From an uncultured Nitrososphaerales archaeon (GTDB lineage Archaea > Thermoproteota > Nitrososphaeria > Nitrososphaerales > Nitrososphaeraceae), in NCBI GenBank assembly GCA_963713605.1, contig CAVQMO010000006.1:1-34698 (forward strand): DNA of 34,698 nt, given 5' to 3'. The translations under genes were made by a program, and so were the position numbers. This document shows, piece by piece, positions 24,105 to 34,698 of the stretch (position 1 is the first letter of the stretch; each line of letters starts with the position of its first letter). The notes beneath the pieces were generated by a model. The model had not been told where the DNA came from and made no database searches. It worked only from the letters and a program-made list of their open reading frames with translations.

Positions 24105-25589
24105 TTGAGCAAAATCCAGATTGGTAGAGGTGCTGTATATCTCTATATCGAGAACATTTCTTCCATGATTCTTGGCTACGCCTTCTGGCTCATATTGTCA
24201 AGGATGATAAGTCCTGAGACTGTAGGAATTTCTTCTTCGTATATTTCTTTTGCCATGATCTTCATTTCTATTGCATCCATCGGGGTTCCGCTTGGTGCTC
24301 AGCGCTTTTTAGGGAAAATGTTTGCAGAGAAACGATTTGAGGATGCTATGGTTTTTGTGAAGTCCTCCTTCTTCATTGTATCTTTAGGTCTATCTGCTTC
24401 CACATTGATAATTTTAGGAAGTGGTTACATATTCTTCAATCATTTCAGATTTATTTTAATTGTAGCGTCGATGGTCTTAATTGTGATATCTACAGTTAGT
24501 ATCCTTCTTCGCTCTATATTTATTGCCTCATTGAATACAAAGAAAGTTCTCTTGGCTTCAACTATTTCGTCAGCCATTAAATTAATTGTTGCTGTCATTT
24601 TGGTATCATTAGGAACAGGAGAAGTAGGCGTTCTGATTTCTTTTGCAGTTGCTCCTCTAATTACGTCAACTATCTTGGTGCTTGATCTGAGGGCTCTCCT
24701 AAAACAAGCGAGCAAAATGACCCTGGTTAGGTTCAGTGATTCTTTACGATTACTCCTGAAGTCTAGTGTAGTAAGCTGGATACCTTTATCGATTGAAGCA
24801 CTCGGAACACAGCTGGGAACAATTATAGTACTTGGAATTCAAGGTTCAACTCAAGCAGGATTCTATTTTATCGCCTTTCAAATATCAATGGGAATATCCG
24901 CAGTCATATGGGCAATAGAGGGAACGGCTTATCCTGCATTAAGTTCTATGGAGAATGGTCGGGAGAGGTTTGTGTGGCGAACAATAAAGGTCTCTTTGCT
25001 CATTTTGTTACCGATCTCTTTTGCAATAATTTTCTATTCGACTAGCATTATCCAATTATTTGGCCAAAGTTACAGTGAAGGTTCAACAGCATTGCAGATC
25101 TTGTTACTTTCGGTCGGCCCAAATGCAATTATGAATGGCATTGGAATATTGACGTATGCCTATGGCAATTATAGACATGTTTTAATAATTGGTCTTGCGT
25201 CGACGGTCCCACGACTTTTGCTTTACTTTATTCTTGTTCCAATGTTAGGTGGAACAGGTGCTGGACTTAGCTACACGCTAGGAACGATAGTTGGACTGAT
25301 TGCATCCATTGTCATTTCTAAGAAAATCGGACTGATTATACCTTGGAAAGAAGTCGCGTTGATGACAGCCGTACCATTAGTGATAGCATTTCTTTTTTCA
25401 GGTTTGAATGTGCATCCTCTGCTAGGAATAACGCTATCAATCCTGGGATCATACTTAATTTACTTAAAATTGATGTTAATCGATAGAAAAGATGTCCAGG
25501 ACTACCTGCAAATACTACCTGGAAATATCGCAAACCCTCTGAACCGTATTGTAGACAGAGTGGCTAGAAAAATAAATGGAAGGTACTGA
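24105..25589 (+). CDS. Polysaccharide flippase (Wzx/MOP superfamily)
   Basis: About 14 hydrophobic segments; ILSRMISPETVG, GVPLGAQRF, GFYFIAF, YPALS, LVPMLGGTGA. Confidence 0.9.
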   Translation: MSKIQIGRGAVYLYIENISSMILGYAFWLILSRMISPETVGISSSYISFAMIFISIASIGVPLGAQRFLGKMFAEKRFEDAMVFVKSSFFIVSLGLSASTLIILGSGYIFFNHFRFILIVASMVLIVISTVSILLRSIFIASLNTKKVLLASTISSAIKLIVAVILVSLGTGEVGVLISFAVAPLITSTILVLDLRALLKQASKMTLVRFSDSLRLLLKSSVVSWIPLSIEALGTQLGTIIVLGIQGSTQAGFYFIAFQISMGISAVIWAIEGTAYPALSSMENGRERFVWRTIKVSLLILLPISFAIIFYSTSIIQLFGQSYSEGSTALQILLLSVGPNAIMNGIGILTYAYGNYRHVLIIGLASTVPRLLLYFILVPMLGGTGAGLSYTLGTIVGLIASIVISKKIGLIIPWKEVALMTAVPLVIAFLFSGLNVHPLLGITLSILGSYLIYLKLMLIDRKDVQDYLQILPGNIANPLNRIVDRVARKINGRY

Positions 25590-25721: not shown

Positions 25722-26713
25722 CTAATTGTTGTCTCCATCATCGTTCCCGTCGTCATTATCATCGCCGTCTCCGTTTCCATCACTTCCACCGTCATCGCCG
25801 TCTTCTTCTCCACCACCATCATTTGGGGCACCAGTCATGTTTGCTCCAGTCATGTTTGCTCCAGTCATGTTTGCTCCAGTCATGTTTGCTCCAGTCATGT
25901 TTGCTCCAGTCATGTTTGCTCCAGTCATGTTTGCTCCAGTCATGTTTGCTCCAGTCATGTTTGCTCCAGTCATGTTTCCTCCAGTCATGTTTCCTCCAGT
26001 CATGTTTCCTCCAGTCATGTTTCCTCCAGTCATGTTTCCTCCAGTCATGTTTCCTCCAGTCATGTTTCCTCCAGTCATGTTTGCTCTCACTTCCACAGCT
26101 GGGAATGTACTTATATCATTTACACATACGGTCTGCAGGTTATCCCCTTCGAAGACAGGGACAAGGTTAAATGATACAGCATTTTGAACGACATTTCCTG
26201 GCCAGATTTCAAATGGGAAAGTGCTAGTAAGCACCTCTGTACCATTAACAATGCCGCGTGGCACTTTTATAAGCTCTGCCTCTGTGTCGTTGATTTCTAC
26301 GTCTCCTCCCTCATCGAAAGTAATTTCTATCATGCCTGTGCTGTTTGCACTAATCCCGAGACATTGCGCTACTGGCCCCAGTTTTACAAAGTGATTGTGC
26401 CAGACGGGATCGATTGCATCTCCGTTCTGGGCAACGCTATCTAAATAACCTGAGTGAGTGGTCGTCACGATAGCTGCGTTAGTCCCTTCGCTGGTTAATA
26501 GTCCATAGCCAAACGCCTTTCCTACTGCTTCAATTCCTTCAGGAATCTCTGCATCTGCTATAAATTCTACGTCCATCCCGGATTCGGTCAATTCGAAGAC
26601 TGTACTGTTTAGTGCAAGTAGTCTGCATCTACTGTTGCTAGAACGGATGATAGTGCGATTGATGCTGCAGTTAAAAAGGCAAGGAGTCCTGTTAGAATGA
26701 GTGCACTATTCAT
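25722..26713 (-). CDS. Secreted protein: His-containing domain, 17x (G[GA]NMT) repeat, acidic Asp/Gly tail
   Basis: ATG 26713 gives signal peptide MNSALILTGLLAFLTAASIALSSVLA, joined to ORF 25722..26591 by a frameshift near 26620; motifs AFGYG, TTHSGYLDS, WHNHFVKL. Confidence 0.85.
25831..26085. repeat. 15-bp coding tandem repeat x17 (CCAGTCATGTTT[G/C]CT)
   Basis: On the + strand: 9 GCT units, 7 CCT units, 1 GCT unit. Confidence 0.98.
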
Positions 26714-26746: not shown

Positions 26747-27164
26747 ATATTCTAGAGTCAAGTGTCATATTAAATGCCATCATTAGAAATTCGGATACTG
26801 CATCTTTCTGGTCTTATCATATATTCATAAAATAGGACTTTGCGAAGATAAGTGGAGTGTCCTGCACTATACCACTGTTTAATGATTTGGTCTAATGTTT
26901 TAGTTCAATAAAGCTTTGTGTATGCCAGATAATATGGGATCGTGAGAACCCCTTCCAAACTGAACCTCAAGTCAAGTCAGATTAATGGTTTAAGACCAAT
27001 TTATGAATAAGACAGGTTTACTTTGACTTAATCTTTTCAGCTTCAATAAATTTAGATAGATAGGTAATCGAGTGAGGGGCCTAACCAGTTGGCCTTGTGT
27101 CAGAGGTAATATATATGAAGGTCTCCAAGCTGACAAAAAGGGTCAGTTGTACTTCCGGACATTA

Positions 27165-28517
27165 ATGATTGTGATAACTTCGATCTGCTTAATCCTATTA
27201 TTATCAGTAGCTGGTTTGCTATCTTACGAAATCTTGTCAGCCTCTGAAAAAGAAGGAGGAAGTAAAAACGACCATAAACAATTAGAGCCATGGGTACGAG
27301 ATCCTAACCTGAAAGTAGAAGGACTGCAGTCCCCTGCTAGCTTCGCATTCTTGGCTTGAATGACATACTGGTTTTAGAAAGATATGATGGAAAAATTCAT
27401 AGAATTATGAATGGAACCCTTGTAAATGAACCATTGTTTGACCTCGCTGTATCAAATAAATTTGAAAGAGGTTTGTTAGGAATTGCAGTAGACGAAAGTG
27501 ATGACGAGAATAAACCAAGATACGTTTTTTTGTACTATACCGAGTCTCCTACTGATGAAGATGGCACAGATATTTGCCCCGTCAGTTATGATTGTGAATC
27601 AGGAAACGATCCATTAGGAAATAGACTATATAGATATGAACTCCAAAATAATAGCCAGCTCGTAAACCCTAAACTACTCTTAGATCTACCCTCCACGCCA
27701 GGTCCTAGTCATAATGGGGGTAAAGTGGTGATAGGTCCAGATAATTATATATATGTGAATATCGGTGACGTTCTTGGTTACAGAAACGATTCAACTAAGA
27801 GTAAAGTTCTGAACTTTGTGAATGGACTAGTGCTGATGGTAGAAGTGGTATTTTAAGGATATCCTATGATGGCAAAGTGGTAGGCGATGGCATTCTTGGC
27901 ACAAGCTATCCTCTAAACCTGTACTATGCTTATGGAATAAGAAATAGCTTATGGGATTGATTTTGATCCCCTAACAGGTAACTTATGGGATACAGAAAAT
28001 GGACCAGATTACGGTGATGAAATAAACCTTGTAGAACCAGGATTTAACAGTGGGTGGAATAAAGTCCAAGGTATTTGGAAACCATTCTATAATGAGACAA
28101 GGGGAGGAGATTTTATCGCGGGCCATGAATTAGGAGCAAATTATGAGGACAGTCTGGAGATTTTCGGAGGAAAAGGCAATTATAGCAGTCCAGAATTCAT
28201 TTGGTACAACACTGTCGCTCCAACTGGACTCACATTTTTCAATTCAAGCAAATTTGGGAAAGAGTATGAAAACGATATGTTTGTGGGAGACTACAAAAAC
28301 GGTAATCTTTATAAATTCGATTTAAATAAAAACAGGACGGGACTGTTGCTTTTTGCGGCTCTTAAAGACGGCATAGTGGATACTTCAAATGAATTCAAAT
28401 CCGTCACTTTTCGGAGAAGGGTTTGGTGGAATTACAGATTTGAAGCTTGGGCCTGATGGATATCTATATGTCCTTTCAATTGGAAACGGAGCTTTGTACA
28501 GAATCGCTCCTAAATAG
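27165..28517 (+). CDS. Secreted PQQ-dependent glucose/sorbosone dehydrogenase, paralogue 2, several frameshifts
   Basis: Signal/anchor helix, DPNLKVE, ERGLLG, HNGGKVVIGPD, YAYGIRNS, LWDTENGP, GITDLKLGPDGYLY...RIAPK TAG 28517. Confidence 0.9.
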
Positions 28518-28791: not shown

Positions 28792-29695
28792 TTACCTCAA
28801 TCTGTCACTAACCATAAGTTTCATGGCATATATGAGGGTAGCTGTTACGAGCATTATTATTCCAATTATTGCAGTTCCTAACGATAAGACAATCAATGGT
28901 GTAGATACGTATCTTGTTTCTCCAAATAGTTCTACTGGATTATTCATTAGTGAAGCAGAAATTATGATTAACGCTAAACCGGGCAAGCCAAAGAAAAGGA
29001 GTGGATGTTTAATGATTACAAACTGTATAACAGTATGGAGTACGCTCACACCATGAGACAACGCATTATGAGTAGATGTACTTTCTATATCATAATTTAC
29101 TTTTATCGGGACTTCAGTCACAGTGAGATTACATCGTTTTGCTTTGATCAGCAGTTCTGAAGAGATAGACATTCCTTTCTCATCCAGTTTAATTTTTCTT
29201 ATGGCATTCTTGCTGTAGGCTCTGAAGCCACTCTGAGCATCGGTGATATCATCATAAGATAACAAACGAGTAACTAAAGTAATAATCCCGATCCCTATCC
29301 TTCTGTACATAGGTACACGTCCTCTGTCTTCAGGGGTCAAAAACCTGGAACCTATTACTATGTCGATACCGTTTGTCAATATTGGGTCTGCAACTGCAGG
29401 GATCTGATCGGGATCGTGTTGTCCGTCGGAGTCGAGAGTCACAATAATGTCTGCATTCATTGTTTTTGCTGCCTTCAAACAATGTCACAATAGCAGCACC
29501 ATAACCCATGTTTTTGTCATGTCTAATTACAATAGCGCCGGCTTCTTCCGCTACCTGGGCAGTACTATCAGATGAACCATCATCACAAACCAATACTTCA
29601 GATGCATATGCTTTTGCTTTGGATACTATAAGTCCAATAGCCTTGCTTTCATTGAAGGCAGGAACACAGACGATAACTTTTTTCCGTATCGACAT
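28792..29695 (-). CDS. GT2 polyprenol-phosphate glycosyltransferase (DPM1-like) with two C-terminal TM helices, frameshifted near 29480
   Basis: VPAFNE, DDGSSD, NMGYGAA, TLDSDGQH, IGSRF, TDAQSGFRA. Confidence 0.9.
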
Positions 29696-29808
29696 ATCTC
29701 TTATCTCACTGCTGAACGTTCGGACACCGTTGAAGGAATTCAATTTTTCACTTAGTTACTCATTGAGATTTGGAATGAGTATAAATTATTTGTGTTACGT
29801 CATAACTT

Positions 29809-30094: not shown

Positions 30095-30849
30095 TAATGT
30101 TTCTCTAGGATTTTCTATCCCTATATTAGTTGAATCCACCCCCCCTTCTTTGATATTCCTTCCTTGATCTTCTTCGCTCCATCAATACTATCTTTCTACA
30201 GCTCTGCAAAGAGTGATGTGAAGTGAGCGATATACAATGGCTTATTGCTAATTAGCAGGCTTTGGACTTTTTTTCCTCCATGCATTTTTTCTATTGTCTG
30301 CGGCAACTTCTTTATCTGATACACCAAAGCTCATTGGGGGCAAGTTCATTACATGTCTAATCTGTATGCCAGCATCAAGTAGTACTTTGTCTAATTTGGC
30401 GTTACCCCTGTTACTTTTTCTTTTGTACCTTCGTGACCTCCCTTCTCCTGTTTTTCAAATAATTTCTTCTCAAAAAAATGGTTGTAGCTATACTGTAATC
30501 CGCTAGAATTTATACATAAGTTTAGTCTATTTTACTCTGCAGTTAGGCGGCTTGGTCTCAGAATCACTTATGTGGAAATTTCCTTAATCCTTCTCCAGAT
30601 GACGTAACTCTGTCATGAGGCCGTTAAACTTTTCATTAGTAATCTCAGTTACATACTAAAGTCGTACTTCGGTCTTCATAGATCCGCACCGCCCGCTCTC
30701 TAGACATGGGATTTTGATGTCCAATAATTGCCTTGACTAATCAAGGCATGCTCCAATTTCTGTCCCTGTACCCTAAGAGAATGCAACACCTTTTCGTTTT
30801 CCTTCTGTCCTACGTTATTTTTCTTTTTTAAATTAATTAAATCTTTCAT
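30095..30849 (-). pseudogene. Decayed N-terminal sensor region of a Nitrososphaera-type histidine kinase (kinase core absent)
   Basis: Successive fragments: IGACLD*SR, *YVTEITNE, ELRHLE..GNFHISD, GLQYSYNHF, LLDAGIQIRHVMNLPPMSFGVSDKEVAA, IEKMHGGKKVQSLLISNKPLYIAHFTSLFAEL*KDSIDG, IKEG.DSTNIGIENPRE. In-frame stops and deletions present. Family assignment is from recall, not a search. Confidence 0.7.
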
Positions 30850-30915
30850 CTCAGTTGATTCGTACAAATTAGTTTGAGGGCCCTTGATCGAATTGCCAAA
30901 GTTACTGAGAATCAA

Positions 30916-32274
30916 TCATACCTCTTCTTCCTCTTTTTCTACTTCCTTTACATAATTCTTGATATCCTCTTCACTAAGAGACGTTTCTATTCCAATGTCT
31001 TTGATAATTGTCTCTTGCTGCTGTTTGGCCTTGTCTATGACCGTATTGATTATTACCTTTTCTCGTTCCCCTGCAGATGTCCCGATACTATGCAAAAACT
31101 TTGACTCCGACAAAGTAGACCTCTTGATCATGTTTCGCAACTGTTCATCCTGCGAAACCGATAAAGCTGACAGGTAAAGTCCCAGAAGTATCAAATATGA
31201 GCCCAGACCGTAGGATGAAATTGTCGCAAATCCGAAAGGAGGATAGACTGTCGTAATCACGCTGCCCTGACTCCCGCTGAAAAAAAGCATAAAGCCAAAG
31301 CCTGCCATGAGTAGATAATCTCGGAATACTTGGTTGCCGCTAAAGTTCTCCGACGTAAATCTAAAGGCAAGATAAAAAAGAATTCCACCAAAAGTTGCAT
31401 TTAAGGATCCTAGCCCATAGAAAATCAGAGATTCCAATTCCTCATGTGGTTCATAGATATGGAAATGATAAATAATTATCAGCGAAAAATATGCTACGGG
31501 AAGACTGAGTAAGAACCAATACTTCACTCTTCCGATCTTGTGAGAATAATGGTACAAAATTAGAGCAGTCCCACCCCACTTTAGGAAGAAAGAGGCAATA
31601 TCACTATATTGATAAATTTTACTAAGAATCTTCCAATTGGATCCCTCTTCAGCCTGAAGATAATAAACATCTGAGGTAGGAAAAATACTAGCAGGCATTT
31701 GTTCACTGAAGACATATATCCATACTGCCAAGAGAGCGATAGATGCAATTACAACTGTCGCAAATGATAAACCGTATAACAATACCAAAATAGAAGACCG
31801 GTTACCTTTATACCAAGACAGAAAGATCACCGTAAATATTCCCATCAATAAGATACTTAGCGAGTAACTTACAAATGTTACCAGCAGAGAGGAGATTGAA
31901 GAATAACTTTCTGTTAGGACTATTTCCATCATGACATAAACGAATAGGATTATTATAAAATACTGAGATACCGTTACTCCAATGTGCATTCGTCTGATGT
32001 GCCTAACTTTTGACCTAACTGTAAGACTTGTTCTGCTAACAAATTGTAGAATAAAGAGCTGGCAAACGATGGTAATAACCCCTAAAACCACAAAAAGGAT
32101 AACGCCACCGGATGAAGATATCGGGATACCAAGTCCGGAACTGAGCTGATTGATAATAGTATCTAAAGAAAGAATTGCGATAAGCAGATAAATTAAAATA
32201 TTAAGCTTCTTGGCGCCAAAGTCGCTGGCTTTATAAAACTTATGATAAAAAAATTTTAAATGCTCTTGTGACAC
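30916..32274 (-). CDS. ~10-TM membrane protein with cytoplasmic helical tail (putative peptide receptor A)
   Basis: About ten hydrophobic helices; YPPFGFAT, SVSQDEQLRNMI, KFLHSIG, SLSEEDIKNYVKEV; paralogue of 32679..34026. Confidence 0.85.
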   Translation of the reverse strand: MSQEHLKFFYHKFYKASDFGAKKLNILIYLLIAILSLDTIINQLSSGLGIPISSSGGVILFVVLGVITIVCQLFILQFVSRTSLTVRSKVRHIRRMHIGVTVSQYFIIILFVYVMMEIVLTESYSSISSLLVTFVSYSLSILLMGIFTVIFLSWYKGNRSSILVLLYGLSFATVVIASIALLAVWIYVFSEQMPASIFPTSDVYYLQAEEGSNWKILSKIYQYSDIASFFLKWGGTALILYHYSHKIGRVKYWFLLSLPVAYFSLIIIYHFHIYEPHEELESLIFYGLGSLNATFGGILFYLAFRFTSENFSGNQVFRDYLLMAGFGFMLFFSGSQGSVITTVYPPFGFATISSYGLGSYLILLGLYLSALSVSQDEQLRNMIKRSTLSESKFLHSIGTSAGEREKVIINTVIDKAKQQQETIIKDIGIETSLSEEDIKNYVKEVEKEEEEV

Positions 32275-32299
32275 AAGCTTAGCTTACTCAAAGGCTAGT

Positions 32300-32481
32300 C
32301 TATGGTGGGTTCAAAACTCCCGAGATATTTCCAGAACCAGTATCTGTCCAATTTCCTGTCTGGTTCCCTGTCGCGTTCCTTGTGCCGAAACCTCCGTGAT
32401 CAGAGGCACTGCTGGTACTGCAAACCCAATCGAGATGAATGCTACCATGACTACTAGTGCCATCATTGTTATCTTCCCCAT
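32300..32481 (-). CDS. Small secreted peptide A, 60 aa (MGKITMMALVVMVAFISIGFAVPAVPLITEVSAQGNATGNQTGNWTDTGSGNISGVLNPP)
   Basis: Not in ORF track. Signal peptide ending VSA|Q. Needs +1 nt at TT 32376-32377; uncorrected it is a 56-aa ORF ending at 32311. TATA at 32504-32510; stop lies 25 nt before receptor A. Confidence 0.75.
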
Positions 32482-32502
32482 GAATCTAAAACTTTGCTTG
32501 AG

Positions 32503-32512
32503 GTATATAAGT
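32503..32512 (-). promoter_or_regulatory. TATA box of the peptide A/receptor A unit
   Basis: ACTTATATAC about 22 nt upstream of ATG 32481, consistent with a leaderless archaeal transcript. Confidence 0.65.
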
Positions 32513-32678
32513 AAATCGCCGGGTATTGTCTACTCTGCAATCGATAATAGATCGCACATCTCCCACAACAAAAGGTTTGGTTTAATGTATAATAATAAGC
32601 ATGCAACGATTTGTTCAATTGCTAGATCCTAGACTTAAACTCGGACTGGAAGAGTGACATAAAAATGCGTCTCCCAGT

Positions 32679-34026
32679 CTACGATGAAGATTTGTGTTTG
32701 TCAACTTCTTGCAAGACCTCAAGAAGATATTGCTTTATGTCCTGTTCCTGAATTGAAAGATTGTACACCGGACTTCTTTTCTAACTCCATTCTTTGTTCT
32801 TTTACCACTTGTTCTAAATCTGATGCCTTTGACTGAACCTGCTTCTCCAGCTGAGCGTGTCCAATGGCGGCTAGAAAACTTGAATCCTTTCTCGTCAAAT
32901 CTTTGATGTATTGTCGCAGTCTAACATCCTGTGATATGGAAGATGCCGCCGCATACAATCCTATTATTATCATGTACGATGAAAGAGTCAGCATAGCATA
33001 AGTGGCAAAGCCAAATGGTGGGTAAGCCGCTACCGAAACTTGGCCGACAGTTGCTATAGAGAGCAGGACAAAACCGTATGAGCAAATCACGAGATAATTG
33101 CTAACAGATTTGTTCGGTCTCATTGTCCTGGATATGCTCCAAAATAGAAATCCAAGTAGAGCTCCTCCGACTATGCCATTTAATGAAGAATATACATAAT
33201 AGTTAAAGAGATCCGTTTCTGATTCTGGGGTATAGATCCCCAAAGTGTCTAACAGAATGCTTACGTAGTATAAAGAGGGTAACAAAACCAGTGTCCAGAA
33301 TTTGGCACGTCCAACTTTACTTGAATAGTGACGTAACATTATGGCCGAACCCACTAGCAGTAATAGAAAACTTGCTGTAGCAGCATACTTGTATATATTG
33401 AACAGCAACATCTCTATACTTCCTGGCTCATATGTGTCTGAAGAGTACACCACTTCTGATTGAGGAGTTATAACTTGATCCTTTTCCATCAGTCCAGACA
33501 TATCTCTTATCATTGAGTACATGAATGCATAGACGTTAATAGAAAAGGCCAAGGCGAAAATCAGCACCACATAGGAGCTCCTATTAAATCGGTACCACAA
33601 AATTAACATGTATGATGAAACTACCATAACACCTGCTGCTACAGTGGGGCTTATAGTTGTCGTCACTACTAGCAGTATCAGATTATATTCTGAGAATAAG
33701 AGAATTTCGGTAAGCAATATTAGGAGTATTACTATAAGCACCACTCCAGTTGCCAACGAAACAATATGTAGAATTCGCAAGTGTATTGAATTGGCACGAA
33801 TGTTAGCAGTCGTATTTGTAATGAAGCGATAAAGTGCGAGAGAACCCAGGATAAAGACGGTCGATATACAAACAAATAATGAGATGCCAAAGGAGGAGGT
33901 ATTCTGTTCTACAAGGAAATCACTGACATAACCAATCACTGAGTCCAGGCTTAAGAAAAATATCGTTGTGGCAAATATAACGAAAAAAATAGGTATCCCT
34001 GACCGATCATGCGGCAGGAGTCGCAT
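32679..34026 (-). CDS. ~10-TM membrane protein with cytoplasmic helical tail (putative peptide receptor B)
   Basis: Same motifs as receptor A (YPPFGFAT, SISQDVRLRQYI, FLAAIG). Removing 1 nt near 32757 restores the C-terminus SSIQEQDIKQYLLEVLQEVDKHKSSS (TAG 32679), matching the paralogue. Confidence 0.85.
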
Positions 34027-34034
34027 TAGTTAGC

Positions 34035-34242
34035 TCAACGTGCGAAACCAGATACACTTCCTGTGTCGTTTGCGTTAGTCTGATTTGACCCCCCAGTATT
34101 GTTCGCGGGCTGAAGTTTGGTTGCTATCAATAGTAGCATTTCCCTGAGCGGATGACTCCGGTACAGGCGACGTCAAAATCGCTAGGCTTAGAGTGAATGT
34201 CAGCACCATTACGACTGCCAGTGTTGAAGTGAATGTTCGCAT
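34035..34242 (-). CDS. Small secreted peptide B, 68 aa (MRTFTSTLAVVMVLTFTLSLAILTSPVPESSAQGNATIDSNQTSAANNTGGSNQTNANDTGSVSGFAR)
   Basis: Not in ORF track. Signal peptide ending SSA|Q. Needs -1 nt (GGG 34107-34109 or C6 34089-34094; same C-terminus either way). TATA at 34264-34271; stop lies 8 nt before the receptor B ATG. Confidence 0.75.
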
Positions 34243-34263
34243 GGCTTTGATTTACGTATCGGC

Positions 34264-34271
34264 TATAAAAA
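34264..34271 (-). promoter_or_regulatory. TATA box of the peptide B/receptor B unit
   Basis: TTTTTATA 21 nt upstream of ATG 34242, nearly the same spacing as in unit A. Confidence 0.65.
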
Positions 34272-34698
34272 CAGTTCTGTGAGCACAAAAATTGTCGAGA
34301 AGTGTCCATGACGAGAACGTATTAGTTCTTACGCATTGCAGTAAATCCATCTTGACTATATTCTGGAACTAGACTAGATAAAGAAATCCGAATATAAGAT
34401 GTGTAGGGGATAAAGGAATAATATTAACTTCAAATAGAATATTCCTAAGGACGAAAAGCAAGTTTATGAATACTTAAGCGCGAAATGAATCAACAGAAAT
34501 AGATCTAAGTTACAGTCGTAACTTTGATTTGTTTAAATAATAACGATATTACAATGAATGCTAATTTTAGAGGAGTGGGGCGCACATGCACAAGCGATTT
34601 GGGATGATCAGAGACCAGTAATTAGTTGTAGAGAGAGGAAGGGGAGTTTCAATTCTCCTATTAGACGCATTTCGAGACCTAGAATAGTTCCTGTACAA

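Follow-up and report, generated by a model that had tools for sequence, protein, structure and literature searches.

The minus strand of the contig analyzed here carries two cassettes, each composed of a small gene for a secreted peptide followed by a gene for a ten-helix membrane protein. This gene pair is conserved in soil ammonia-oxidizing archaea, in which it is previously undescribed, and may represent an archaeal peptide-signaling module. Little is known of cell-cell signaling in archaea; in the sections available of a 2025 study, the Haloferax signal is described as small and non-peptide (PMC12240190), and in those of a 2024 study of marine ammonia oxidizers the signaling candidates are homology-based only (PMC11442133). 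Full-text literature searches found no description of the 10-TM protein family or of an archaeal peptide-plus-sensor module.

Organization and Reading Frames of the Cassettes

The window, that is the whole stretch of 34,698 nucleotides analyzed (contig CAVQMO010000006.1, from an uncultured Nitrososphaerales archaeon), contains the following features:

34264..34272, minus strand: TATA-like box TTTTTATAG, 30 nt 5' of the start codon of pepB, identified by direct reading of the sequence
34035..34242, minus strand: pepB, secreted-peptide gene, 68 aa after removal of an extra base in the CCC run 34107-34109
32679..34026, minus strand: membrane protein B gene, 448 aa after removal of an extra base in the TTT run 32756-32758
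32504..32510, minus strand: TATA box TTATATA, 29 nt 5' of the pepA ATG
32300..32481, minus strand: pepA, secreted-peptide gene, 60 aa provided that one G is inserted into the GG at 32378-32379
30916..32274, minus strand: membrane protein A gene, 452 aa, intact ORF
30160..30516, minus strand: remnant of a broken PLD-like gene in several frames, with tblastn homology to the middle domain of the kinase paralogs

The initial annotation had described the same architecture twice on the minus strand with a TATA box before each peptide gene, and both ORF pairs were found there, the small ORFs starting at 32481 (pepA) and 34242 (pepB) upstream of the membrane protein genes and the boxes lying at the distances listed above. 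The box before pepA is kept as CTTATATAC in all four aligned genes.

As assembled, three of the four cassette genes are frame-broken: pepA is a 56-aa ORF (32311-32481), pepB a 55-aa ORF (34075-34242) and membrane protein B is 435 aa (32719-34026), each break (in pepA, pepB and the 3' end of B) being a single-base indel in a homopolymer. The peptide lengths of 60 and 68 aa given in the initial annotation do not apply to these frames, and are obtained once one base is added to pepA and one removed from pepB. In independent public assemblies, the contigs of 3/3 DNA runs and one RNA run have one base fewer at 34107 in the CCC run of pepB, and the contigs of 3/3 DNA runs have one base fewer at 32756 in the TTT run at the 3' end of B. 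No run covers pepA, and its repair is based on three homologous genes only (L011, L014, and L002), in which a DNA alignment has GGG where the window reads GG at 32378-32379. The frames of pepB and the 3' end of B were in this way restored by independent assemblies, and the break in pepA is explained by ortholog alignment. After correction the gaps between peptide and membrane protein genes are 25 nt (A) and 8 nt (B), the values originally reported, and the dropping of the base at 32756 gives B the cytoplasmic tail ending DIK.Y..EV that it was said to share with A and that is also present in a paralog from the same genome (L040:2106-3461). The motifs SAQGNAT, G[NS][IV]SG, and YPPFGFAT are all present as originally noted.

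One metatranscriptome contig spans 33970-34205, covering pepB and the start of B, and is a hint that these are expressed. A GT2 gene near the cassettes is likewise split (28792-29743). The contigs of close relatives diverge from the window just past the stop codon of B, so the presence of the A cassette at this site is not fixed.

Linkage of the Peptide and Membrane Protein Genes

In relatives' genomes, an upstream peptide was found for 15 of the 15 members of the two clades holding A and B, that is for every row of the A clade (six rows, 100% SH-aLRT support) and of the B clade (nine rows, 99% SH-aLRT support). Among testable A-clade loci in metagenomes, 64 of 65 had the peptide, 63 of them with a G-x-[IV]-[SA] motif, and the peptide genes are intact in 64/65 metagenome loci and in all of the relatives' genomes examined. 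By a criterion free of sequons, upstream peptides were counted in 14/14 members of the peptide clades, 5/67 other stand-alone members, 1/17 kinase forms and 114/2000 random windows, such ORFs being at background in clades other than A and B. Among 3000 random 680-nt windows, 49 gave a loose peptide candidate and 2 gave one bearing the C-terminal motif. When the entire 4.08-Mb genome was scanned strictly, only six such peptide ORFs emerged from 13,874 small ORFs, two of them immediately upstream of the A/B paralog pair of contig C5 and four of them sequon-rich small ORFs located away from family genes; the scan misses pepA and pepB of the window because both are frame-broken.

These observations support the peptide gene and membrane protein gene being an inherited unit. 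As most of the family, including the kinase-fused forms examined, is without an upstream peptide, the 10-TM domain needs no peptide to work, and the association predicted for homologs of the two membrane proteins holds in the A and B clades and not in the wider family. Within these clades, none of the three refuting outcomes named in the initial annotation was observed. The A-type and B-type modules are old paralogs that usually travel together. The initial annotation had also likened the co-duplication and co-divergence of peptide and membrane protein to pheromone/receptor pairs; the tail differences follow the phylogeny of the linked genes and thus alone cannot show co-evolution.

Features of the Peptides

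The pepA product has a signal peptide ending VSA/Q (the slash marking the predicted cut), four sequons, the sequence G-N-I-S-G and a tail of five residues, and the pepB product has a signal peptide ending A/Q, five N-x-T sequons, G-S-V-S-G and a tail of three residues; the B-clade homologs of pepB have intact frames. Across 16 peptides there is little or no variation in the A and Q that close the hydrophobic stretch or in the G and S belonging to the C-terminal motif, and sequence rules predict cleavage of the signal peptide. The residues after the C-terminal motif number 3-14 and are mostly polar and clade-specific, and 54 of 57 peptides have a tail of 6-7 residues past the motif Ser. After cleavage the peptides would be polar (T 17%, G 16%, N 15%), those of the A clade being neutral to acidic, and in one subgroup conservation is 0.84 in the mature part vs. 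0.78 in the signal part.

Of the 335 Asn residues of the peptides, 271 are in N-x-T sequons, as compared to 75.7 ± 7.0 (maximum 103) in 1000 shuffles, an enrichment which indicates that the peptide genes are under selection. A homolog of STT3/AglB was found in the genome (97 bits vs. a curated cut-off of 24.5). The peptides consequently have the features of an archaeal N-glycoprotein (a secretion signal, more sequons than expected by chance, and a genome-encoded oligosaccharyltransferase) and are probably N-glycosylated by the cell's AglB/STT3.

Two other types of signal were considered and rejected. A type IV pilin-like (class III) signal, in which a [KR]-[GAS] cleavage site precedes a hydrophobic stretch retained by the mature protein, did not survive inspection of the N-termini, as about 1 in 16 has K-A before the hydrophobic stretch and all keep A-Q (one S-Q) after it. 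A C-terminal sorting signal (archaeosortase PGF-CTERM and similar), which would have a TM helix and a basic tail behind a short motif, was discarded because there is no hydrophobic segment behind the motif, only the 3-14 mostly polar residues.

The Membrane Protein Family

Membrane proteins A and B share 33% identity across 406 aligned residues (E 3e-57), in agreement with their initial designation as divergent paralogs. They had been estimated at about 450 aa with about ten TM helices; their lengths are 452 and 448 aa (B corrected), and the AlphaFold2 model of A (pLDDT 91.2, pTM 0.89) has ten membrane-length helices followed by three cytoplasmic helices. Membrane protein A carries an extracellular YPPFGF loop and a cytoplasmic coiled-coil tail, and B has a 10-TM sensor-type domain and a cytoplasmic helical tail. 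Both belong to a large, unannotated family of 1272 clusters (at 50% identity) found only in Nitrososphaeraceae.

Neither A nor B matched any Pfam family (E ≤ 0.01), A matched no NCBIfam family, and HisKA_7TM and 7TMR-DISM in Pfam had no match in A, B, or the TM part of the kinase-type ORF L032 at E ≤ 0.01. There was no sequence match of the membrane protein to a transporter, enzyme, protease, sortase, or transferase family, and Foldseek with the A model returned no solved fold at E ≤ 0.001, so that the transporter or enzyme fold against which the initial annotation had set its receptor was found by neither route. No Cys, His, Ser-His, Asp-Asp, or metal-binding set is conserved in the family or in the peptide clades, and aromatic TM residues make up most of the positions that set the peptide clades apart. 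Residues 119-383 of A superpose best on Ste2 (7ad3) by VIA-align (Z 13.4, rmsd 4.1 Å, 235 residues, 6% identity), a score that is to be read against the Z of ~13 that helical bundles reach by chance; on the same scale, other GPCRs and rhodopsins gave Z 8.5-11.7 for residues ~119-383. The nearest named Atlas cluster scores just 0.82, and 10% of its members carry HisKA_7TM, so that we take it as a lead only.

Kinase-Fused Paralogs and Two-Component Neighbors

The same 10-TM domain forms the N-terminal part of histidine kinases of ~1000 aa with HisKA and HATPase_c domains, and kinase-type proteins account for 19 rows of the family tree. For instance, L032 is a 970-aa open-ended ORF (HisKA 3.4e-14, HATPase_c 6e-9) in which positions 4-447 of the family profile are covered, and L041 is a kinase-type ORF of 1015 aa. 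No kinase or other output domain was identified in A or B themselves by Pfam. Sequence comparison supports the membrane protein being of the sensor type, with what would be an input domain common to two-component kinases.

To the 55 flanking ORFs submitted out of 93 listed (low-complexity and antisense-overlapping ORFs being dropped by eye) we added five from relatives' loci, for a total of 60. Among these hand-picked ORFs, Response_reg was found eight times (L118, twice, L165, L166, L167, L177, L011, and L040) and HisKA with HATPase_c twice (L196 and L197), two-component neighbors being present at only a minority of loci. The kinase of L197 is a soluble protein of 534 aa whose gene starts 142 nt downstream on the same strand. 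The remnant at 30160..30516 derives from a gene for a cytoplasmic product and shows homology to the middle domain of the kinase-fused paralogs, a tandem PLD-like domain placed after their 10-TM domain (28.8% identity over 125 aa, E 3e-13, by tblastn with an 844-aa ORF of the same genome); intact-looking genes for PLD-like-domain proteins are downstream of the A-clade genes in L120, L126, and L129, the copy in the window being broken. A subtilase and a subtilase propeptide were observed near two A-clade genes, L153 and L163.

Proposed Function and Alternatives

The reading we favor, tentatively and with a little less than even confidence, is that the peptide is an extracellular, probably glycosylated partner of a stand-alone sensor that feeds two-component signaling. 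Each cassette would be a two-gene module under its own TATA box. The pre-peptide would be exported by Sec and cut by signal peptidase I after the conserved A and before Q, to give a polar mature peptide of roughly 27-45 residues with 3-7 N-x-T sequons, probably N-glycosylated by AglB/STT3, and closing with a brief tail, specific to the clade, that follows the invariant G-x-[I/V]-S-G. The second gene would supply the stand-alone 10-TM sensor-type membrane protein, whose conserved extracellular loop 5-6 and YPPFGF loop 9-10 are predicted to contact the peptide, which would serve as a ligand or be retained as a co-sensor, and whose conserved cytoplasmic helical tail would pass its state to two-component partners encoded nearby or elsewhere, the candidates being soluble histidine kinases, PLD-like-domain proteins, and receiver proteins. 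Modules A and B may act as two parallel channels or form a heteromeric sensor. Cleavage, glycosylation, contact between peptide and membrane protein, signaling output, and any diffusion of the peptide between cells are what we infer. The peptide-ligand/receptor system of the initial annotation is partly supported: it gains from the linkage, the sensor-type domain and the kinase and receiver neighbors, and loses from the lack of an output domain in A and B. A bolder version, which we think somewhat unlikely, would make this the first archaeal peptide pheromone system and its signal the first Sec-secreted N-glycopeptide, with the clade-specific tail, displayed behind the invariant G-x-I-S-G, read by a 10-TM receptor that has a 7TM-like core and gates separate cytoplasmic kinases and receivers, and with A and B as two orthogonal channels by which soil ammonia oxidizers sense kin or cell density.

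Alternatively, rather than signaling between cells, the peptide could act in cis as a glycosylated extracellular subunit or cap that stays permanently bound to the 10-TM protein and might shape or protect its outer face or tether it to the S-layer, with the complex sensing something else. The one-to-one linkage and the short gaps suggest equal production of the two products, the motif is invariant in both clades as expected of a common docking element, and the peptide-less paralogs show that the domain senses without peptide. We nonetheless regard a bound subunit as unlikely: cleavage at the conserved A/Q site would detach the peptide from the membrane, it is hard to see what would then keep a polar peptide of 30-40 residues in place, and the variable tails are left unexplained. 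It is also conceivable, if distinctly unlikely, that the module is antimicrobial, with an archaeocin-like secreted peptide, an immunity or resistance membrane protein, and a tail diversity driven by a toxin-immunity arms race. A secreted peptide adjoining a membrane protein gene, multi-copy paralogy, clade-specific tails on a constant scaffold, and a cassette boundary that varies between close strains would all fit an antimicrobial, but the mature peptides, being polar, T/G/N-rich, and neutral to acidic in the A clade, are not amphipathic or cationic, the whole membrane domain is common to histidine kinases, and the conserved cytoplasmic signaling helix would be unneeded by an immunity protein.

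A processing role, which is modeled on sortase and archaeosortase signals and was also the alternative offered in the initial annotation, appears quite improbable to us. The 10-TM protein would here cleave at G-x-[IV]-S-G, or transfer the peptide onto a surface protein, a lipid, or a glycan, the tail acting as leaving group. The near-fixed distance of the invariant motif from the C-terminus (6-7 residues in 54/57) is typical of processing signals, and the subtilase and propeptide near L153 and L163 could be counted in its favor; against it are the absence of a conserved catalytic-type or metal-binding residue set in the family and peptide clades, the lack of any protease, sortase, or transferase family match or Foldseek fold at the thresholds above, a motif without the following hydrophobic segment of known C-terminal sorting signals, and the kinase fusion of the 10-TM domain, which argues for sensing. 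That the small ORFs are frame-broken leftovers and the window cassettes pseudogenes is scarcely plausible. Although pepA, pepB, and the 3' end of B are out of frame in the window, and the nearby GT2 and PLD-like genes are split too, all breaks are single bases in homopolymers and independent short-read assemblies lack two of the three, nearly all metagenome loci and the relatives' genomes have intact peptide genes, and the sequons are under selection.

Comparison With Known Systems

AgrD/AgrC, ComC/ComD, and PlnA/PlnB are Gram-positive peptide quorum-sensing systems with polytopic sensor kinases. The archaeal modules resemble the Agr and Com systems in that a small peptide gene adjoins, and is inherited with, that of a polytopic membrane sensor whose extracellular loops are all short (15/15; 64/65), in that the peptide end varies between paralogous or allelic groups, and in the tie to two-component signaling. 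They differ in having a sensor of 10 TM helices without a kinase in the same polypeptide (HisKA/HATPase_c being only in the ~1000-aa paralogs), what on inspection is a Sec-type n-h-c signal ending A/Q as opposed to a leader cut by AgrB or a C39 ABC exporter (double-glycine), a sequon-rich peptide that is probably a glycopeptide, and an archaeal host, and there is no sequence relation. The comparison with AgrD/AgrC made in the initial annotation therefore breaks down on processing, as AgrB (PF04647) had no match in the genome (87% complete) and the signal is of the Sec type.

The Phr peptides of Bacillus (RRNPP) are Sec-exported pro-peptides whose last few C-terminal residues are the signal, and their receptors are cytoplasmic TPR proteins, reached after import. 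The peptides here likewise run from a signal peptide through a spacer to a short, variable C-terminus, which could be the active portion, but their partner is a membrane protein and their spacer has sequons and an invariant motif. In yeast prepro-alpha-factor, a signal peptide precedes an N-glycosylated pro-region and the active part is C-terminal, the receptor Ste2 being a 7TM protein. The order of the precursor is similar, and Ste2 is the best structural neighbor of A residues 119-383 (with a Z borderline for helical bundles); however, A has three extra N-terminal helices and shares 6% sequence identity, and we do not claim homology. To our knowledge, archaea have no G-protein system.

7TMR-DISM, HisKA_7TM (PF16927), and 5TM-LYT are membrane-embedded input domains of prokaryotic signaling proteins, and in UhpC/UhpB and BceB/BceS a membrane co-sensor that has no kinase of its own works through a separate one; we know of no dedicated upstream peptide gene for any of these. 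As in 7TMR-DISM, HisKA_7TM, and 5TM-LYT, the all-helical membrane module here occurs both fused to HisKA/HATPase_c and alone, and by analogy the stand-alone forms are plausibly co-sensors. Neither the stand-alone nor the fused forms here match a Pfam family in their membrane part. HisKA_7TM is mentioned in PMC5847659.

Implications

The gene pair provides a concrete and widely conserved signaling candidate in the Nitrososphaeraceae, which are key soil nitrifiers. The peptide is short enough for synthesis, and the kinases and receivers are natural partner genes to assay. Even if the peptide should prove to be a bound subunit, the modules would define both a novel input domain for two-component systems of archaea and a novel class of small secreted glycopeptides.

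Two peptide-membrane protein cassettes in the window

The window spans contig C6 (34,698 bp) from end to end. The initial annotation had described, twice on the minus strand, a small secreted-peptide gene followed by a gene for a 10-TM protein, and this tandem arrangement is confirmed. The membrane proteins are here called A and B and the peptide genes upstream of them pepA and pepB:

30916-32274, minus strand, membrane protein A, ORF of 452 aa
32719-34026, minus strand, membrane protein B, ORF of 435 aa as assembled
32311-32481, minus strand, pepA ORF as assembled, 56 aa, hydrophobic N-terminus, upstream of A
34075-34242, minus strand, pepB ORF as assembled, 55 aa, hydrophobic N-terminus, upstream of B
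29 nt before the pepA ATG, minus strand, TTATATA box, kept in 4/4 aligned genes
30 nt before pepB, minus strand, TTTTTATAG, read from the sequence

A and B are paralogs (33% identity over 406 residues, E 3e-57). The C-terminal halves of both peptides as initially annotated, and the C-terminal motif given for B, lie in a different frame from the assembled ORFs, and the three breaks (in pepA, in pepB and at the 3' end of B) all fall within homopolymers. The frames were checked against Logan contigs from four public runs with near-identical sequence, aligned to 30850-34350. One base of the CCC run at 34107 in pepB is absent from all three DNA runs, which are not fully independent of the window as one may be the window's own sample, and from the sole contig of the metatranscriptome run; one base of the TTT run at 32756, at the 3' end of B, is likewise absent from the three DNA runs. 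With these corrections pepB encodes 68 aa and B encodes 448 aa (stop at 32679-32681), the initially annotated frames are regained, and the tail of B agrees with an intact paralog in the same genome (L040:2106-3461). The contigs of all four runs leave 31552-32604 uncovered, so the repair of pepA is taken from homologs: at 32378-32379 the window has GG where three homologous genes have GGG in a DNA alignment, and one additional G yields a 60-aa peptide. After correction, 25 nt separate pepA from A and 8 nt separate pepB from B.

We read the frame breaks as assembly indels because other window genes are split in the same manner, as in a family-2 glycosyltransferase (GT2) gene (28792-29743, minus strand) that is divided into two overlapping ORFs matching Pfam profile positions 2-75 and 72-167. 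Pieces of a glucose/sorbosone dehydrogenase lie at 27072-27856 (plus strand). The split GT2 gene, the fragmented dehydrogenase and the three cassette breaks together suggest that there are many homopolymer indels in this assembly (4.08 Mb, 15 contigs, 87% complete); strain-specific decay of the cassettes is the alternative. Contigs of three runs with near-identical B depart just beyond the B stop, at 32685-32695, into unrelated sequence, and the A cassette is thus absent from that site in those strains. This boundary of the cassette resembles a site of recombination or insertion.

A family of membrane proteins restricted to the Nitrososphaeraceae

No family in Pfam or NCBIfam was matched by A, B or either peptide ORF, with the sole exception of a meaningless match to PaaY (E 0.03), and the family profile found only chance apelin-receptor matches among PDB sequences (E 0.88 or worse). 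Matches in the ESM Atlas were to unnamed Nitrososphaerota clusters only. The family comprises 1272 clusters at 50% identity with E <= 0.001 (275 with E <= 1e-30), and its members are annotated at source as hypothetical proteins of Nitrososphaeraceae only. In a tally of 40 related genomes, including the unpublished G013, it was present in 23 of the 24 genomes of the window's family and in none of 16 genomes representing as many other families of the order. The window's own genome has about 19 family loci, several of them fragmented.

Ten helices of membrane length and three cytoplasmic ones are seen in the AlphaFold2 model built for A from a 72-row alignment (pLDDT 91.2, pTM 0.89). Judged by helix order and the basic loop 6-7, both termini are predicted to be cytoplasmic, which would place loop 5-6 (192-212) and loop 9-10, with its YPPFG motif (344-348), outside the cell; YPPFG is nearly invariant across the family. 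Foldseek matched the model to no solved structure in the PDB at E <= 0.001. In a Foldseek-independent superposition, residues ~119-383 of A could be laid on 7TM receptors and rhodopsins, the best being the fungal pheromone receptor Ste2 (7ad3_B; Z 13.4, rmsd 4.1 Å over 235 residues) and the others reaching Z 8.5-11.7, which we take as resemblance only because helical bundles attain such values by arrangement alone. A residue set of protease or transferase type is kept neither in the alignment of the whole family nor in that of the peptide-linked clades. Positions conserved in the peptide-linked clades only are mostly aromatic and lie in TM5, 6, 8, and 9.

Kinase-fused relatives

The 10-TM domain, together with a conserved helix (S.S.D..LR ... 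D.K.YL..V), also forms the N-terminus of proteins of ~1000 aa that end in HisKA and HATPase_c domains, for instance at L032, where family profile positions 4-447 are covered, and at L041, an ORF of 1015 aa. That the membrane protein of the cassettes belongs to a sensor family is therefore firmly supported. In the fused proteins a region of ~330 aa, for which Pfam has no match, separates the membrane domain from the kinase core. Its model (pLDDT 68.6) resembles, by Foldseek, phospholipase-D-fold proteins and the TrmB/TrmBL2 effector domain (E 2e-9 to 2e-5), with vaccinia F13 (E 2e-9) and TrmBL2 (E 2e-7) among the matches:

L041:2813-3805, plus strand, tandem phospholipase-D-like/TrmB-effector-like region, with homologs in L032, L010, and L039

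The region keeps an R-H-V-K-N-L-P-P stretch that recalls the HKD motif. A multi-frame remnant homologous to this middle domain occurs in the window at 30160-30516 (E 3e-13), and intact-looking PLD-like genes lie downstream of A-type genes at three loci (L120, L126, and L129), so that A's closest relatives resemble a fused kinase cut after its first third, with the second third encoded by a separate gene.

A kinase-type member of the window's own genome is noteworthy for its loop 5-6:

G000 C5:15939-18470 (L010:748-3279), kinase-type family member, ORF stopping within the H-box

This ORF is probably frame-broken as well. Its presumed extracellular loop 5-6 carries four tandem copies of the eight-residue acidic unit E-Q-E-E-V-G-H-S.

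The peptide gene accompanies two clades

Family genes and their upstream DNA were gathered from the window's genome and 24 related genomes, and the upstream DNA was scanned for ORFs (35-140 aa) that begin with a hydrophobic segment and contain two or more sequons. There were 118 rows with an N-terminus, including second copies of the same two genes of one genome (G021) and six with less than 350 nt of upstream DNA. An upstream peptide was flagged in 17 rows, or 18 with A of the window, which escaped the scan because its peptide frame is broken. All flagged ORFs end in G-x-[IV]-[SA]-[GDSV] followed by a tail of 3 to 13 residues.

The peptide-linked rows group into two clades, that of A (6 rows, 100% SH-aLRT) and that of B (9 rows, 99%), in an IQ-TREE quick tree (LG+G4) built from 105 near-full-length domains, and the upstream peptide is present in all 15 rows of these clades. 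Both clades, along with a peptide-less clade of five rows, fall within a 21-row group (99% support). No upstream peptide accompanies any of the 19 kinase-fused rows, which are placed elsewhere, with 17 in a single clade. One row from the unpublished genome (L029) lies outside both peptide clades and carries no conclusion. By a criterion free of sequons, upstream signal-peptide ORFs were found in 14/14 rows of the peptide clades, 5/67 of other stand-alone members, 1/17 of kinase forms and 114/2000 random windows; outside the peptide clades, upstream peptides are thus at background level.

Metagenome contigs scanned with the A+B alignment yielded 80 loci, all of A type (44-91% identity), of which 15 were untestable owing to insufficient upstream DNA or a missing N-terminus. 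A peptide gene was found at 64 of the remaining 65 loci (the exception being L154) and the motif at 63, compared with 49/3000 random windows for a loose candidate and 2/3000 for a candidate with the motif. The expectation that homologous membrane genes have a peptide gene upstream is thereby borne out within the peptide clades, and conservation of the two-gene module as a unit across at least five genera is firmly supported.

Anatomy of the peptides

Sixteen genome-derived peptides could be aligned end to end. A short N-terminus, frequently with one K or R, is followed by a hydrophobic stretch of ~20 residues and an almost invariant A-Q whose -3 and -1 positions are small residues; by sequence rule we read this as a signal peptidase I site. 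There follow repeated N-x-T units, mainly G-N-M-T or G-N-A-T, then [ST]-G-x-[IV]-S-G and the tail. In 58 distinct mature A-clade peptides (mean length 38 residues; 17% T, 16% G, 15% N), 271 of 335 Asn lie in N-x-S/T, 236 of the 271 as N-x-T, against 75.7 +/- 7.0 (maximum 103) in 1000 shuffles. An STT3/AglB gene is present in the genome (97 bits). The length past the motif Ser is six or seven residues in 54 of 57 peptides. Selection of the peptide for its secretion signals, sequons and C-terminal motif is firmly supported. A class III (pilin-type) signal peptide was rejected on inspection of the aligned N-termini, as was a C-terminal sorting signal, there being no hydrophobic segment after the motif.

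Tails are constant within subclades, e.g., [VA]-E-D-P-(G/D)-F in 16 distinct sequences, and vary between them, some ending in C-x-x-C-F; those of the B clade tend to be basic and those of the A clade neutral or acidic. Such a pattern is expected from shared descent, as the genes sit side by side and are co-inherited, and neither it nor congruence of tails with receptors would by itself show co-evolution.

Four more small ORFs in the window's genome, away from family genes, are built alike, with signal peptide, A-Q, sequons and G-x-I-[SA]:

G000 C3:311513-311707, plus strand, orphan-position peptide ORF
G000 C3:248788-249012, minus strand, orphan-position peptide ORF
G000 C3:228033-228245, plus strand, orphan-position peptide ORF
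G000 C10:1111494-1111715, minus strand, orphan-position peptide ORF

Two of these have Cys-containing tails, and 620 nt downstream of the C10 ORF lies a second, similar ORF. They may be either orphan peptides or members of a wider peptide family.

Genomic neighborhood

A-type and B-type modules generally co-occur: as a tandem with B first in the window, in two relatives (G005:C374 and G009:C116) and at 10 of the 80 metagenome loci; divergently on G000:C5 and G021:C63; and convergently at three metagenome loci. From 93 listed flanking ORFs, low-complexity and antisense-overlapping ones were removed by eye, and the 55 kept were run against Pfam with five from relatives' loci. These 60 included eight receiver domains (two at L118 and one each at L165, L166, L167, L177, L011, and L040) and two histidine kinases (L196 and L197); the remainder had no mutual relation. 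At L197, in G023, a soluble kinase of 534 aa begins 142 nt past the A-type gene on the same strand. Other genes near the cassettes are:

L011:2523-3461, L012:3561-4100, L013:2992-3408, L014:3022-3657, and L040:7129-7461, D/S/G/T/P-rich repeat gene
L153:1998-3044, minus strand, subtilase (Peptidase_S8, E 9e-49) with sequon-rich N-terminus, adjoining an A-type gene
L163:2-658, minus strand, subtilase propeptide (Inhibitor_I9), adjoining an A-type gene
Window 25722-26591, minus strand, pentapeptide-repeat protein, a few kb from the cassettes
Window 24105-25589, plus strand, Polysacc_synt-type flippase, a few kb from the cassettes

The repeat gene, whose product has a hydrophobic start and long acidic repeats, lies downstream of A-type genes in several relatives and is absent from that position in the window. 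The subtilase and the subtilase propeptide, which make up just 2 of the 60 flanking ORFs, might be extracellular proteases that process the peptide. The pentapeptide-repeat protein, the flippase and the GT2 gene form a loose glycan-related context that the related loci examined do not share.

Possible roles of the module

The peptide-ligand/receptor reading of the initial annotation stands in part. It is favored by the inherited two-gene unit, the selected peptide and the sensor kinship of the membrane protein. The likeness to Gram-positive pairs of peptide and polytopic sensor is incomplete: these would be closest in working to the present module, but their sensors contain the kinase that A and B do not have, no AgrB was found in the 87% complete genome, and the peptide is not of the leader type. 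We consider it a little short of evenly balanced that the peptide is a ligand or co-sensor partner of the membrane sensor, with about half of that likelihood going to a diffusible signal between cells. The peptide would be exported, cleaved at A|Q and N-glycosylated, and would contact the outer face of the neighboring membrane protein; the latter, having no output domain, may use its conserved cytoplasmic helices to relay its state to a separate partner (a kinase, a PLD-like protein or a receiver). A complex prediction for a B-type pair from the window's genome (L040 membrane protein 1-380 with mature peptide 34-70, both with alignments) scored 0.02 and is neutral on binding.

The sequons and the paired inheritance could also belong to a glycosylated subunit that stays bound to the membrane protein, an unlikely reading that nevertheless retains some weight; the tails differ from subclade to subclade. 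A secreted peptide encoded beside a polytopic protein might equally be an antimicrobial with its immunity protein, which we hold to be rather improbable; the membrane protein shares its domain with histidine kinases. Still somewhat less probable is that the peptide is the substrate of a processing or attachment enzyme: an adjoining subtilase would fit, and the reading of the membrane protein itself as the enzyme was rejected, as it has no conserved catalytic set. The broken frames of the assembly recall decayed ORFs, a reading to which, beside the conserved module and the selected peptide, we give hardly any credence.

The present peptides resemble in layout Phr pro-peptides and yeast prepro-alpha-factor, where a signal precedes a spacer (which in yeast is glycosylated) and the C-terminal end is the active part. 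The 10-TM domain is comparable in behavior to the membrane-embedded input modules known from bacterial signaling proteins but matches none of their models. No description of the membrane family, the peptides or any archaeal peptide-sensor pair surfaced in the full-text literature searched. Archaeal kinase sensor domains are described in PMC5847659, the 10-TM domain not being among them in the portion within our search; kinase-fused members may be among the archaeal kinases of its supplementary tables. The module, built of parts that had no annotation, belongs to an archaeal family of ecological importance.
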